Below are positions 4,282 through 46,297 of a stretch of 64,000 bases of DNA, piece after piece. Position 1 is the stretch's first letter. Each line of letters starts with the position of its first letter. The stretch comes from a bacterium (GTDB taxonomy: Bacteria; SAR324; NAC60-12), in the NCBI GenBank assembly GCA_965205865.1, contig CBDBHR010000030.1, positions 384,001 to 448,000 of the forward strand. The letters are read 5' to 3'. The position numbers and the translations under genes are program-made. The notes below the pieces were generated by a model. The model ran no database searches. It was given only the letters and a program-made list of their open reading frames with translations, and was not told the origin of the DNA.

Positions 4282-4795
4282 GGGGTCAGGCTTGCGTATT
4301 GGTATTTAATTTGTGAAATGCCACTCAGACAAAGGATTGAGACTTGGTTCCTTTCTGAAACCTTCTTTGCTGAACAGACAACGCATTGCCTTTCAAACCC
4401 AGATGAGAGTCAATCCTCAGATGCGTGAAAACTCCTGCACTATAGACAATTTCTCAATACCAATATGCGGTCACCGTAAAGAACTGACTTATAGTGGTTT
4501 CCAGCCACCTTTCGTCATTCCTCCGGTACAGATCCGGACGTGCACTGCTAACGCATCCGGCTCCTGCTTCGAGTCAGACGCTCAAACGTTGCCGTTTGGC
4601 GCACAAGGTCAGCGCCTGAAACTATGATTTCGGAGCTCAATACCGAGCCTATGTTCTCCCCTGTCAACGCTTAGCGCCTATCCTTGCGAATAACCACTCA
4701 TGACTCGGGGACTCGGCGGGTCGTTACTGCCTTACCGAGTAAGAGACTTTCACTCTCTATTTCTTGCCAGCTTTCCTGGCGCAGGGCCTGACCCC
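4282..4795. mobile_element. Non-autonomous TIR element A (GGGGTCAGGCY family) carrying a mini group II intron in its right TIR
   Basis: Left TIR ggggtcaggcttgcgtattggtatt. Right TIR read on the minus strand is ggggtcaggcc|cgcatattggtatt once 4470-4784 is removed. Confidence 0.85.
4470..4784 (-). ncRNA. ORF-less, internally deleted group II intron copy (5' ~183 nt plus DV/DVI)
   Basis: Near-identical to 41358-41540 and 39584-39704; the 5' end is CUGCG rather than GUGCG; 3' end ...GGUGAC. Confidence 0.9.
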
Positions 4796-6596: not shown

Positions 6597-6806
6597 AATG
6601 TTAGTTCATTTGAATAAAGTGTTTTCCTGAATTGTTGTGTCGTCCCTGCGGGACTTTGAAGGAGACTGTATTTTGTTCCCAGTGATGAATCGCTGGGCTA
6701 CTTCCTTTTGTCCTTCCAGGACTTTTTCTTACATACGAATCTCAAACTTATATTTACCAGAAGCATAACAGAGTAAGTAGTTGACCCTTTATTTTTTAAC
6801 ATGTCA

Positions 6807-9090: not shown

Positions 9091-9905
9091 GGGGTCAGGC
9101 TTCGTTAAATCGTTATTGAAATTTTTCATATTTTTGATAGACTTTTCTTTTTAGTTTTTTAACTCTATCTGAAAGGAGTCCTATGTCTCGTAAACCCCGA
9201 ATTCATCTTGCCGGCGGTATGTATCATGTGATGCTTCGTGGAAATGGAGGACAGGCTATCTTTTTTCGGAAAGAGATCGCCAAGTGATCTATATTTTTTG
9301 CAACTCATCCGCTACATTCATCAAAATCCTTGGCGTGCGGGTTTGGTTGAAGATTTGAAAGACTATCCCGATAGCAGTCATTTGTGTTATTTGGAGCATG
9401 AACAAAAGGATTGGCTGTATCTTGATGCGGTTTACCAACGATTTGGAAAACGTCGGTCAGTGGTGATCAGAAAATACACTGCCTTCATCGATGAAAAGGA
9501 AGAGGAGGCGTCTGTTTTCAGGAATGGAGAAGCTCAACCCGACATTATTGGTGATGAGAGTTTTGCCGAAACGGTGAGACCGCGTGTCGAAGAAAACATT
9601 CAAATAGTGCTGAGATGGGAAGATATTCTGAAAAGTGTTGGCGCGATCTTGCAGGTGAATCCTGAGGTGCTCAAAACCCCCGGCAGGCAAAGGAAAAATG
9701 CGCGAGCGCGAGCATTTATCGCGCTCTTTGTTGAAGAATTTTCAGTGACTTCCTTCCAGGAGATCGCCCGTTTTTTTAAGAGAGATATTGTCACCATCAG
9801 CCAAGGGGTGAGTCGACTGAGAAACAATCTCCCTGTCGATGCCAACCTCCGCAGGCAATATGACGCGATTCGCAATCAATTAACGAAATAACGAAGCCTG
9901 ACCCC
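9091..9905 (+). mobile_element. TIR element B with an internally deleted Y1/HUH transposase
   Basis: TIRs ggggtcaggcttcgtta(aa/tt)tcgtta. ATG 9183 gives MSRKPRIHLAGGMYHVMLRGNGG, then jumps to YFLQLIRYIHQNP, so the HUH motif is missing; C-terminal HTH; stop codon lies inside the TIR. Confidence 0.85.
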
Positions 9906-38487: not shown

Positions 38488-38686
38488 ATTCGTGCTATTT
38501 GTGCTTATGAGAAGATAAATCCGACTATCTCTCCGGTCGACTGACGAGGAATTGGGGTCAGGCCTGCGACTTTGGGAGTTTAAGTTTAAATTTCCGTTTG
38601 ATCTCTTCGACACGGTTTTGCAGATCAGGAGACTTTCTGATTTTTTGTCTCAGCTGATGGATTCTGGCACTGATCGTCGAATCATC

Positions 38687-39517
38687 TCAATTGAGCTTGT
38701 TTGCCAGCTCTCTGATTGTCGCGGACTTCAAGTTGAAAGCGATCATTCCAACCACGGCCAGCGCTTCACTGAACTTGCGGGACTGCCCCGCATTTTTTAA
38801 TTGTTCCTCCTCAATCCGATAAACCTCCGAAACCCGCTGAATAATCTTTTCTAAAGAAGGAGGCGCGTGAGGCTTCGTTTTCAGTTGCTCGAAAACAGAA
38901 CTCAGGAAATGATCTTCTCCGATTACTTCGGGATGAGTTGACCCTTTTTTAAAATTCACTTCGGAGGCGATTCCCCTTCTTTCATGAATATAAGTCGCAT
39001 AGAATTTCCTCGCCTCAGAACGATCTGAGGAAAAGAGAGACAATCCCAAGTCACAATGCAACCAATCCGGCTGCTTTCCCCCCAAATAAGCGGCATGGCT
39101 ACTCCAGGGAAATTCCGCCAATTCCTTGACGATTCCCGCTCGGGTCGGATTGAGGTGGATGTAACGTATTAAGGCAAGCAAATAGCGGTCTTGATCCACT
39201 AACAGAGCTTTGTAACGCCCTTGGAATAAGTGTCCGACTCGTTTTTGCCGTTTGTTGATCCAACGGGTGTAACGAAATGATACATTTTGCATAATCGGCG
39301 AAAGTGGCTGACTGCCGGTTTGGATGGCTAGATGCGCATGATTGTTCATCAAACAAAAGGCATGAATGCGATGATCAAAACGCGCATGACCCTCTGCAAG
39401 CAACTTGTAAAAATGATGATAATCCGTATGCTCGAAAAATAGGGCTTGTCCGCCATTGCCACGGAGCATGACATGATAAAGGGCGCCGGGGAAGTAAAGA
39501 CGAGGTTTGCGGGACAT
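38687..39517 (-). CDS. Y1 (HUH) tyrosine transposase with a DnaA-C-like HTH, shortened by a CGA>TGA change
   Basis: YHVMLRGN, LMNNHAHL (HUH), YIHLNP (catalytic Tyr), WSS; the copy at 47123 reads through to KREI*. Confidence 0.92.
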   Translation of the reverse strand: MSRKPRLYFPGALYHVMLRGNGGQALFFEHTDYHHFYKLLAEGHARFDHRIHAFCLMNNHAHLAIQTGSQPLSPIMQNVSFRYTRWINKRQKRVGHLFQGRYKALLVDQDRYLLALIRYIHLNPTRAGIVKELAEFPWSSHAAYLGGKQPDWLHCDLGLSLFSSDRSEARKFYATYIHERRGIASEVNFKKGSTHPEVIGEDHFLSSVFEQLKTKPHAPPSLEKIIQRVSEVYRIEEEQLKNAGQSRKFSEALAVVGMIAFNLKSATIRELANKLN

Positions 39518-39583
39518 TGGCAAAATCGGCTGAAGGGAGAAACTTAAAATTAAAAATCATAACTCCTGTTTCCCAAACTCGCA

Positions 39584-41540
39584 GTCACCGTAAAGAACTG
39601 ACTTATAGTGGTTTCCAGCCACCTTTCGTCATTCCTCCGGTACAGATCCGGACGTGCGCTGCTAACGCATCCGGCTCCTGCTTCGAGTCAGACGCTCAAA
39701 CGTTGATTCGGATACGGGTGGGTTGTCCTTACAGAAGGAATGTGTAGTTTGACCAGTACTTTGAAGCGTTCCCAGTTCATCCTCTTTGCTTTGTGACTCC
39801 TCCGTCTTAGTGATTTGAACCACGTCCGATGGATTTCCGTGCGAAAAGCATTCAAGGAACTCCGGTTGCCGGGGACTCCATAGTAGTTGTACAGACCGTT
39901 TAAAACAGACCTGAGCCATTTTCCTTGTTCATGCGCATTTTCATGACGTTTGCGTTTCGCTTCAAGTTTGATCTCTTTGAGCTTCTTTCGCAACCTTTTG
40001 GAAATGGTGAGACGGGTGAGCTTGAATTTTCCATCCTTTATCCGAGTGTCACAGACATGAGTGAATCCTGAAAAGTCGAAACTTTCCGGTTTTCCCAGAC
40101 CTTGTTTTTCCCGGTTATCGGCGGCAAATCGCCCGAACTCGATGAGGCGTGTTTTCTCTTCATGTAAAGTCAGTCCAAATTGAGAGAGGCGTTCTCTTAG
40201 TTGGCGATTAAATTTCTGGCCATCTTCAGAATATTGAAAACCCACGACGAAATCATCCGCATAGCGAATGATGTAAACTTCCCCCCGAGCTTCCCGCCTT
40301 CTCCATTGATTGACCCATAGATCTAAAACATAGTGCAGGTAGATATTTGAATAGATTGGAGAAACTACCGAACCTTGTGGTGTTCCGACCACCGTTTCAG
40401 ACCACTTCCCCTCTTCGATGACTCCGGCGCGCAACGTTTTCTCTACTAAACGCAGAATCCTTTTGTCGGAGATTCGATGCTCGATAAATTTCAGCATCCA
40501 ATCATGCTGAATTGTGTCGAAAAATCCTTGAATATCCGCATCTAAGATGTAGCTCACTTTCCGTTGGGTAATGGCCACATACAAAGCGTCTAAGGCTTGA
40601 TGTTGGCTTCGTCCGGGTCGGAACCCGTAACTAAACCCAAGGAAATCCTCCTCATAGATCGATTCCAACGTCCAAACAAGGGCTTGTTGTACGATCTTGT
40701 CTTCAAGTGCGGCTATTCCGATTGGCCTTTGACGGCCATCCGGTTTAGGAACCCACACTCGCAGAGAAGGGTGAGGACGATAACGTTCTTGGTGGATCCT
40801 CCCGTGCAGATCGTTAATCCGCTCCAGGAGATTTATGCCATACTCATTCCAGGTCTCCTCGTCCACTCCCGCCGCTGAGTTGCGATTGAGATCAAAGTAA
40901 GCTCTCCGCAGTAAGTCAGGGTTGATGTGATGAAAGAGATTGTTGAATTGAAGATGGGGGTTCCTCTTCGCCCTTTGGCGCACCCTGCTTAAACCGCTCT
41001 CTGATTTTACCGGCCTCTGAGTTCCGAACACAGGAGGGCAAGCAGAATTCCTCTCAGCCAAGTCCCTTTGCTCCACAGGCTCCGTTGATTTCCTTTGCAT
41101 TGTTACTCTCTACAAATGATCTCATTGTTCGCCGCTTCATCGCTACTACGAACTTGTCCGACTTCCTGAAGACGTAGATATCGGGGTTATTTATTAATTT
41201 TCCCGATCCGACTACCAATAGAATGTTGACAGTCGTCTTCAGGATCTCCCAGGTTCCGATCAAGAAACTTCCACACATGCACCGGGTCTTTGACTCCGCC
41301 AGGCTCAGCCGAGACTCACGCTAACGCCTTCGGTTGATATTGCCTTCCCCACCAGACCACAAGGTCAGCGCCTGAAACTATGATTTCGGAGCTCAATACC
41401 GAGCCTATGTTCTCCCCTGTCAACGCTTAGCGCCTATCCTTGCGAATAACCACTCATGACTCGGGGACTCGGCGGGTCGTTACTGCCTTACCGAGTAAGA
41501 GACTTTCACTCTCTATTTCTTGCCAGCTTTCCTGGCGCAC
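39584..41540 (-). mobile_element. Full-length group II intron (class E-like by inference)
   Basis: 5' GTGCGCCAGG; DV GAGCCGGATGCG...CGCACGTCCGGATC; 3' ...GGTGAC; RT ORF in DIV. Confidence 0.95.
39688..41100 (-). CDS. ltrA: Group II intron reverse transcriptase/maturase without an endonuclease domain
   Basis: AAGVD, RPIGI, GFRPGR, GTPQG and YADD motifs; X domain; 470 aa. Confidence 0.95.
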   Translation of the reverse strand: MQRKSTEPVEQRDLAERNSACPPVFGTQRPVKSESGLSRVRQRAKRNPHLQFNNLFHHINPDLLRRAYFDLNRNSAAGVDEETWNEYGINLLERINDLHGRIHQERYRPHPSLRVWVPKPDGRQRPIGIAALEDKIVQQALVWTLESIYEEDFLGFSYGFRPGRSQHQALDALYVAITQRKVSYILDADIQGFFDTIQHDWMLKFIEHRISDKRILRLVEKTLRAGVIEEGKWSETVVGTPQGSVVSPIYSNIYLHYVLDLWVNQWRRREARGEVYIIRYADDFVVGFQYSEDGQKFNRQLRERLSQFGLTLHEEKTRLIEFGRFAADNREKQGLGKPESFDFSGFTHVCDTRIKDGKFKLTRLTISKRLRKKLKEIKLEAKRKRHENAHEQGKWLRSVLNGLYNYYGVPGNRSSLNAFRTEIHRTWFKSLRRRSHKAKRMNWERFKVLVKLHIPSVRTTHPYPNQRLSV

Positions 41541-41654
41541 AGCCTGACCCCGTACCGTACTCTGGGAGAGGACTTGACATCCTCCGGGGGATACGATAGA
41601 GATGGAGTGCTTTCTTTAGAAGAATTTTTAAAACAGTCTGATAAGGAGGACCGG

Positions 41655-46231: not shown

Positions 46232-46297
46232 GGGGTCAGGCCTTTGTTGTTGTGTTATTCAAGTATTTAAATAAGCCAATAACAAAAGCCTGACCCC
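46232..46297. mobile_element. 66-bp hairpin TIR element D
   Basis: ggggtcaggc-ctttgttgttg...caataacaaaa-gcctgacccc. Confidence 0.85.

Follow-up and report, generated by a model that had tools for sequence, protein, structure and literature searches.

The stretch of DNA analyzed here, called the window throughout, comprises 64,000 nucleotides from a bacterium of the SAR324 lineage (NAC60-12; assembly GCA_965205865.1, 4.74 Mb in 30 contigs; contig CBDBHR010000030.1, positions 384,001 to 448,000, or C30:384001-448000 in the contig notation used below), and it raises the question of why a group II intron should lie within a terminal inverted repeat (TIR) of a Y1/HUH transposable element, with a second, miniature copy at the same nucleotide of the TIR of a different element. 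We consider it very probable that this is a mobile, endonuclease-less group II intron whose homing site is the outer TIR end of TIRtrons, the Y1/HUH elements that carry TIRYT transposases, and of their miniature derivatives. TIRYTs are transposases resembling REP-associated tyrosine transposases (RAYTs) that are flanked by TIRs, the elements that they form are TIRtrons, and many of the TIRs share the motif GGGGWSAS (Di Nocera et al. 2013, PMC3733652); most TIRYTs belong to TnpAREP subclass 2.1, with a C terminus like DnaA_C or a helix-turn-helix (HTH), and the consensus has been given as GGGG[AT][CG]A[CG] (Quentin et al. 2018, PMC6006769).

The Intron and Its Host Element

The features of the intron locus are as follows.
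39584-41540, minus strand: full-length group II intron, 1957 nt, 5' GTGCGCC ... CGGTGAC 3', with boundaries backed by intron-less paralogous TIRs
41284-41506, minus strand: domain I core (Rfam RF02005, 168.2 bits, E 8e-49)
41353-41358, minus strand: exon-binding site 1 (EBS1) GGUCUG, whose partner, intron-binding site 1 (IBS1), is CAGGCY; placed by the terminal loop in the Rfam alignment and by covariation
39688-41100, minus strand: intron-encoded protein (IEP) of 470 aa, reverse transcriptase (RT) and maturase (TIGR04416, RVT_1, YADD)
39584-39679, minus strand: domains V and VI with the AGC triad and the 3' end ...ACGGUGAC (RF00029, 31 bits)
41541-41551, minus strand: 5' exon GGGGTCAGGCT, the outer 11 nt of the TIR, holding GGGGWSAS and IBS1
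39560-39583, minus strand: 3' exon TGCGAGTTTGGGAAACAGGAG..., the inner part of the same TIR (empty paralogue at C29:20777)

The window intron is a complete endonuclease-less group II intron that splits the TIR of a Y1/HUH element between bases 11 and 12. When it is excised in silico, GGGGTCAGGCT is joined to TGCGAGTTTGGGA, and 22 of 24 bases match the opposite TIR, GGGGTCAGGCCTGCGACTTTGGGA, at 38554; the intron-less paralogue of the occupied end reads GGGGTCAGGCT^TGCGATTTTGGGAAATAGGAG. The junctions given for the intron in a preliminary description of the window, made from the sequence alone, are therefore correct. The group II end signatures are present (5' GTGCG and 3' GAC, where GUGYG and AY are expected), and RF02005 matches both window copies (168 and 93 bits; gathering score 49). 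The RF00029 match falls under its gathering score of 40, but its last matched base is the last base of the intron, 39584, and its alignment shows GAGCCGGAUGCG...CGCACGUCCGGAUC in the domain V/VI region. Three other full-length copies in the genome are identical to the window intron or 99% like it. In the IEP, encoded in domain IV, the NCBIfam group II RT/maturase family TIGR04416 covers residues 63-434 of 470 with 342.7 bits (cut-off 300), and Pfam RVT_1 scores 127 bits. No HNH or other Pfam family was found on this protein up to an E value of 5 and, because in addition the protein stops about 35 aa past the maturase match, no endonuclease domain is detected, as in introns of classes A, C, D, E, and F and of the g1-g4 varieties.

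The host element and the second, miniature copy are made up as follows.
38687-39523, minus strand: TIRYT-type Y1/HUH tyrosine transposase gene, 278 aa, intact (Pfam Y1_Tnp, 49.7 bits)
38554-38578, plus strand: distal, unoccupied TIR of the same TIRtron
4470-4784, minus strand: dead 315-nt intron remnant, consisting of intron positions 2-183 and 1836-1957, with EBS1 deleted and C as first base
4282-4795, no strand: non-autonomous TIR element hosting the remnant, about 200 bp without the intron, with TIRs at 4282-4306 (plus) and at 4785-4795 and 4446-4469 (minus)

The transposase gene follows the intron after 60 nt, in the same orientation, and its reading frame is intact, in agreement with the earlier remark that insertion spares it. 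The Y1_Tnp match is well above its cut-off of 23, and HAH and YIHLNP occur in the translation. Two further matches fall under their cut-offs, namely NCBIfam REP_Tyr_transpos, the REP-associated tyrosine transposase family (68 bits, cut-off 80), and a weak C-terminal match to Bac_DnaA_C at residues 225-277 (E 0.005, 17.3 bits, cut-off 31.5). Both element ends carry GGGGTCAG, which fits GGGGWSAS. As judged from its TIR motif and protein family matches, both of which fit, the host element is a TIRtron with a TIRYT transposase. The preliminary description had also placed a mini copy in the TIR of the element that ends at 4282, and this too holds: excision of the 315-nt remnant joins GGGGTCAGGCC to CGCATATTGGTATT, resembling the TIR at 4282.

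Several other elements of this kind were seen in the window. Positions 9091-9905 hold a further TIR-bounded element with GGGGTCAGGCT ends, in which the TIRYT gene is internally deleted or degraded (tblastn matches to residues 2-31 and 112-274); a truncated second copy of the TIRtron at 38554, in which the distal TIR is identical and 119 C-terminal TIRYT residues are retained, extends from 47091 to about 47600; and a 66-bp REPIN-like hairpin at 46232-46297, a miniature inverted-repeat transposable element (MITE), consists almost entirely of two inverted GGGGTCAGGC-type arms.

Copies, TIRs, and Junctions across the Genome

The association with TIR ends extends to the whole genome. A BLAST search with the intron gave 92 segments in 49 clusters, amounting to 41,387 bases or 0.87% of the assembly. 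Among these 49 pieces, 4 are full-length copies with an intact 470-aa open reading frame (ORF), and 16 lack the ORF, measure about 692 nt, and have a common deletion (positions 572-1835); the remainder comprise 10 other both-ended copies, 11 with only a 5' end, 6 with only a 3' end, and 2 internal pieces. At the 41 5' junctions, insertion is between TIR bases 11 and 12 with the intron always reading inward, so that the proposal of one nucleotide and one orientation in different TIR arms, made for the two window copies, applies genome-wide. The 5' exon is exactly GGGGTCAGGCY at 23 of the 41, CAGGCY is perfect at 35, and a perfect CAGGCY is combined with at most one mismatch in positions -11 to -7 at 31. 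The sole 5' junction without a TIR exon is in a tandem pair at C26:239010-240179, where the 5' end of the second copy abuts the last base of the first. The 3' junctions number 36; the intron is followed (base +1) by T at 30 of them, by C at 5, and by G at 1, and 27 of the 3' exons belong to eight TIR-arm types. In a MITE of about 80 bp, introns are present at both ends, 6 and 6.

The potential targets are numerous. The sequence GGGGTCAGGC has 145 occurrences in the genome, where about 9 would be expected, mostly as inverted pairs that bound elements of 66 bp to about 1 kb, and 114 exact-core TIR ends are unoccupied. With at most one mismatch, 10 matches lie in the window against 3.4 expected, a number reached by 1 of 100 shuffles. 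Several TIRYT families with 34-67% mutual identity, and many remnants, are present in the genome.

The joint of the ORF-less form, 39704>40970, was found in contigs from two RNA libraries and in two other runs. In one RNA library, the contig depth over window positions 39540-39767 (runs X15 and X16) was about 1500-2500, as compared with 5-17 over the adjoining TIRYT gene; this ratio of 3'-end to TIRYT depth is far above that in two other runs, and effects of copy number and of the contigs are not separated in it. The high 3'-end depth may reflect accumulated excised intron RNA.

Some further observations concern these repeats and introns. In six copies (C28:262897-264375, C28:326218-327823, C29:627016-628615, C30:653968-655382, C30:788483-789835, and C30:1205902-1207500) an extra insert of about 830-910 bases is present at intron position 396-401, in a twintron-like arrangement. 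At 17 places, for example C30:568345, C4:25420, and C26:288337, a complete TIR begins 3-6 bases after a truncated core, which is GGGGTCA(G) or extends to as much as 15 nt; TIR elements thus nest in the ends of others of their kind. The element end may include the 4-5 purine-rich bases (GAAAT, AAAG, GAAG) that precede GGGG. Other group II RT genes, 31-40% identical to the IEP, are found at C15:7553-8452, C25:24305-25204, C26:166303-167202, C24:131765-132394, and C30:878628-879896; several intron families are thus present in this genome.

Recognition of the Target

The hexamer GGUCUG pairs at 6 of 6 positions with CAGGCY, which corresponds to TIR bases 6-11. Its assignment as EBS1 was proposed in the preliminary description and is borne out by its position in the terminal loop of the Rfam structure and by covariation: in a domain I alignment that includes the relatives described below, ten different hexamers in the EBS1 loop are each complementary to their own 5' exon at 5 or 6 of 6 positions. 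The pairs are GGUCUG-CAGGCY, AGCCUG-UGGGCU, UGGGUG-CACCCA, UGUCUG-CAGGCA, CGCCUG-CAGGCG, AGAGCG-CGCUCU, AGCUUG-CAAGCU, UGAGCG-CGCUCA, UAAGCG-CGCUUA, and UUAACG-CGUUAA. It should be noted that four lineages start with GAAAGCG or GAGCG rather than GUGCG and that the boundary in these was set by the EBS1 pairing.

Base pairing with EBS1 does not account for the choice of sites. The genome contains 4467 CAGGCY sites, of which 138 (3.1%) have the prefix GGGGT, and at most 4 of the approximately 1058 CAGGCYT sites without this prefix are occupied, so that insertion into GGGGT-prefixed sites is about 50-fold more frequent than into other CAGGCYT sites. Because of this strong over-use, pairing of EBS1 and EBS3 alone is insufficient for site choice, and a determinant beyond EBS1, coinciding with GGGGW, confines insertion to TIRs. 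Even the divergent sites retain GG(G) at -10 to -8.

Relatives in Other Phyla

The comparison was extended to 37 loci in other genomes with IEPs 46-86% identical to that of the window intron and to 80 metagenome loci, where junctions were set by profile alignment of domain I together with EBS1 complementarity, blind to the motif. Counts are based on 58 junctions outside this genome; they omit 16 of the 37 genome loci and 43 of the 80 metagenome loci, where the 5' end is off the contig, there is no 5' hit, or the junction is unresolved. The loci omitted include L073, L120 (4 of 6 pairs), and L127 (ambiguous, with an alternative reading that places the junction between GGGGCAGGC and GAAAGCG). 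In any of six registers, 17 of the 58 junctions are within one mismatch of GGGGWSAS, as compared with 2.1% of 11,599 random positions in the same loci. The register is identical to that of the window intron (motif at -11 to -4, insertion three bases past it) in 13 junctions from 8 independent sources, namely metagenome-assembled genomes (MAGs) of a Spongiibacteraceae, a Planctomycetaceae, and a Desulfobacteraceae bacterium, Candidatus Thiodiazotropha, Psychrobium, and three metagenome contigs. Four more junctions have two mismatches in that register, including those in "Deltaproteobacteria bacterium TL4" (82% identical) and Endozoicomonas. The expectation that the 5' exons of RT homologues would carry the motif and that Y1 genes would lie nearby is borne out to this extent, with a Y1-like ORF immediately 3' to the intron, in the same orientation, at each of the foreign loci L026, L032, L039, and L050.

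In an IEP tree, restricted to loci with a clean ORF of 380 aa or more, so that 16 were omitted, the clade containing this intron (Shimodaira-Hasegawa-like approximate likelihood ratio test value 97, 13 rows) has GGGGWSAS-type exons in 11 of 13 members, and the Planctomycete copies fall in a neighboring clade. Relatives outside these clades lie in unrelated targets, for example CGCTTA-type exons and, in a Klebsiella plasmid, upstream of a bacteriocin gene. On the sequences compared, TIR-end targeting is a real, clade-wide specialization extending over several phyla.

The targets are repeated in some of the foreign hosts. The 10-mer GGGACAGGCR occurs 18, 148, and 10 times in three of these genomes, as compared with 1, 31, and 4 times for a reversed-pattern control; the Psychrobium occurrences are paired as inverted copies 98 bp apart, and at L039 the small element is present in a second, intron-less copy that has an inverted partner. 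The degenerate GGGGWSAS pattern was not enriched over the control in two foreign genomes, and this generic form is uninformative there because it is too degenerate. Among 150 of 201 candidate ORFs flanking the foreign genome loci, the Pfam search gave only a weak Y1_Tnp match at L032, and many DDE transposases are nearby. A search of five foreign genomes with PF01797 gave many classical IS200/RAYT-like genes, and none of those listed adjoins an intron locus.

Two of the foreign introns have features of their own. In the TL4 intron (L018), which at 82% IEP identity is the closest foreign relative, domain I is interrupted at 1127-2499 by an element with HTH and DDE_3 transposase ORFs. The intron at L135 in Klebsiella pneumoniae plasmid NZ_CP130268.1 is 49% identical, with its 5' junction at about 145 after the palindrome-like tactgtgtatatgtacagt, which we take to resemble a LexA box, and with a colicin-like bacteriocin gene downstream; introns of this type are present on thousands of Klebsiella plasmids, and their target is unrelated to TIRs.

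Proposed Mechanism and Alternative Explanations

In the proposed mechanism, the 3' half of EBS1 reads the conserved SAS of GGGGWSAS and its 5' half the three element-specific bases that follow; GGGGW at -11 to -7 would be read by protein contact or by an unrecognised pairing. The IEP is encoded by the four autonomous copies, and the ORF-less copies carrying the 572-1835 deletion have spread in trans to many TIR types; the occurrence of the same ORF-less deletion form in most TIR types implies that a non-autonomous derivative has retrohomed many times. By analogy with other endonuclease-less introns (RmInt1 and the class C, or IIC, introns), reverse splicing would take place into transiently single-stranded or unwound DNA and would be primed by nascent strands at replication forks. 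TIRs offer an abundance of harmless sites, a pair in each element on opposite strands, and, because GGGGWSAS is shared across phyla, the lineage can follow TIRtrons between hosts through three base changes in EBS1.

A quite improbable alternative is that there were one or a few entries into TIRs and that most copies arose when the transposase copied intron-bearing elements as units. The hosts are indeed mobile and multi-copy, as the unoccupied ends indicate, one MITE type holds 12 intron-bearing copies, and C28:358767 and C29:409136 share an identical 5' flank of 30 nt, which points to duplication at the DNA level. However, the introns are present in eight TIR-arm types and at both MITE ends, one ORF-less deletion form is found in most host types, and relatives in other phyla have the same register and a matching EBS1. 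In a ribozyme-only tree of 27 intron copies, host TIR type is not clustered (18 changes as compared with a shuffled mean of 18.1) and intron variants are scattered over host types, although no branch of this tree is strongly supported. Splitting of the TIR after its outer 11 nt would, moreover, be expected to hinder and not to help transposition. It is very improbable that the intron lacks any specialization for TIRs, that it needs only the 6-7 nt read by EBS1 and EBS3, and that TIRs are hit as a consequence of being common. EBS1 pairing is the sole pairing demonstrated, and a few insertions are at sites with two or three mismatches in -11 to -7, but the rarity of GGGGT before CAGGCY is difficult to reconcile with its presence in exact form at 23 of the 41 junctions and within one mismatch at 31, as are the scarcity of insertions at prefix-less CAGGCYT sites and the GG(G) retained at divergent ones.

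A closer coupling between the intron and the transposon appears unlikely, although it has some points in its favor. TIRs might be entered as single strands or hairpins exposed by the Y1 transposase or by replication, or as transposase-bound ends, so that targeting would be TIRYT-dependent. Endonuclease-less introns use single-stranded DNA at replication forks (PMC4424553) and Y1 transposases act on single-stranded DNA (PMC6006769), TIR ends are hot spots for nested TIR elements (the 17 cases given above), and where a TIRYT gene or an N-terminal remnant of one adjoins, the occupied TIR is the one proximal to the gene in 7 cases and the distal one in 2. The ratio of 7 to 2 is not significant, however, MITE ends are used symmetrically, and IBS1 would be base-paired, and so hidden, within a hairpin. 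The GC skew of the intron sense strand is positive in 29 cases and negative in 20, and it is weak, noisy, and too weak for a test of strand bias. It is likewise doubtful, if conceivable, that the intron clade co-diversified with TIRtrons across phyla and depends on them mechanistically, either by entry at exposed single-stranded TIR ends or as composite elements that combine DNA transposition with retrohoming; if true, composite intron-bearing TIRtrons would be a group II counterpart of IStrons. On this reading, insertion may in addition disable the TIR and thereby serve as a brake on the transposon.

Homing of the intron to TIR ends remains the preferred reading, but a number of observations weigh against it. 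Nine of the 36 3' exons in the genome lie outside any recognized TIR arm, 2 of the 13 members of the IEP clade have other exons, the Y1 matches beside foreign introns are all under the curated cut-offs, and the register labels of the relatives rest on junctions that were partly placed by EBS1 complementarity. Among the contigs of the two RNA libraries, none shows the exon-exon joint 39583>41541 at the locus, a result that speaks neither for nor against splicing. In the intron and its relatives alike, a search of the internal loop on the 5' side of the EBS1 hairpin, the IIB-type location, for an EBS2 able to pair with GGGGW gave no consistent candidate, and the sole CCCC run falls within a helix of the Rfam structure. 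EBS3 was not identified by a scan of domain I for covariation with base +1, which gave two columns, about the chance level for three lineages. The first EBS1 base is G or A within the genome, and its tie to the last exon base is weak: the A variant follows T in 7 cases and C in 3, and the G variant follows C in 10 and T in 12.

Comparison with Known Systems

Zimmerly and Semper (2015, PMC4424553) distinguish three kinds of target for bacterial group II introns, namely homing sites, terminators, and attC. The host element resembles published TIRtrons in its RAYT-like Y1 transposase, GGGGWSAS TIRs, and moderately abundant families of TIR repeats, and the weak Bac_DnaA_C match may correspond to their C-terminal DnaA_C-like helix-turn-helix, but the element differs from them in that several TIRYT families and more than 100 TIR ends are present in one genome. 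A close functional parallel, from the RmInt1/RmInt2 group (class D), is RmInt2 of Sinorhizobium meliloti GR4, all copies of which are in the inverted repeats of the insertion sequence (IS) ISRm17, which it recognizes through EBS/IBS pairing (Martinez-Rodriguez et al. 2014, PMC4615759). Its authors noted that, by homing to inverted repeats, the intron gains twice as many sites, one of which is certain to be on the lagging strand, and called this habit a survival strategy (PMC4615759). The window intron shares with RmInt2 the lack of an endonuclease, sites in the inverted repeats of a transposable element, two per element on opposite strands, and EBS/IBS pairing. However, RmInt2 as described there uses one IS in one species, whereas here the motif is common to many TIRtron types and the clade extends over several phyla; the host is also a Y1/HUH (TIRYT) element, the copy number is far higher, and most copies are derivatives without an ORF. 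Among S. meliloti plasmid sequences the best match, an ltrA gene that was not identified as RmInt1 or RmInt2, is 34% identical over residues 75-347 only, and the window intron is therefore probably not a close relative of RmInt2; in other plasmid introns the identity is 49-55% and extends over the full length.

Like RmInt1, whose homing site is in the multi-copy ISRm2011-2, the window intron is endonuclease-less, and the priming at replication forks described for RmInt1 is proposed for it; the RmInt1 target differs in being within ISRm2011-2 and not in IS terminal repeats (PMC4615759, PMC4424553). The site of the window intron is inside a TIR arm, 11 nt from the element end, and not directly 3' of a terminator or attC stem-loop, the position characteristic of class C. 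IIC introns insert just past a stem-loop, rely on its structure, and have a very short IBS1. The RmInt1 target is inside the ISRm2011-2 transposase gene. In the present intron, unlike IIC introns, a 6-nt EBS1 covaries with a site inside a repeat arm. IStrons consist of a group I intron fused with parts of an IS200/605-type transposon, whereas here a group II retroelement parasitizes the end of a transposon. The likeness to class C introns lies in the absence of an endonuclease and the targeting of a recurrent, multi-copy DNA motif (PMC4424553), and that to IStrons in the physical joining of a self-splicing intron to a Y1/HUH transposon (PMC6006769). In Pseudomonas putida, 2 of 9 intron copies are REP-associated (Tobes and Pareja 2006, PMC1525189).

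In the accessible text of PMC3733652 the term "group II intron" is absent, that of PMC6006769 uses "intron" only for IStrons, and that of PMC3552965 gives no target data. No paper linking group II introns with TIRtrons or TIRYTs was found in the literature searched, which did not extend to subscription journals or supplementary files. The earlier statement that no such lineage had been described thus stands for Y1/TIRYT elements in that literature but has to be given up for the strategy in general, since homing into IS inverted repeats is already published (RmInt2/ISRm17, PMC4615759). What is new in the literature searched is the use of TIRtron (Y1/HUH) targets, the recognition of a family-wide end motif over many TIR types, and the conservation of the habit and its register through a multi-phylum clade.

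Other Features

An Rfam match to the Acido-Lenti-1 small RNA is present at window positions 6678-6723 (47 bits, gathering score 37).

Significance

Homing into IS inverted repeats, which in the literature examined is documented for one rhizobial intron, is here a conserved trait of a clade. It explains how an endonuclease-less intron reached about 45 copies, or 0.9% of the genome, without hitting host genes, and the division of EBS1 into a fixed 3' half and a variable 5' half provides a natural rule for retargeting. The intron also marks the true ends of TIRtrons, which are poorly studied elements, and it may inactivate them.

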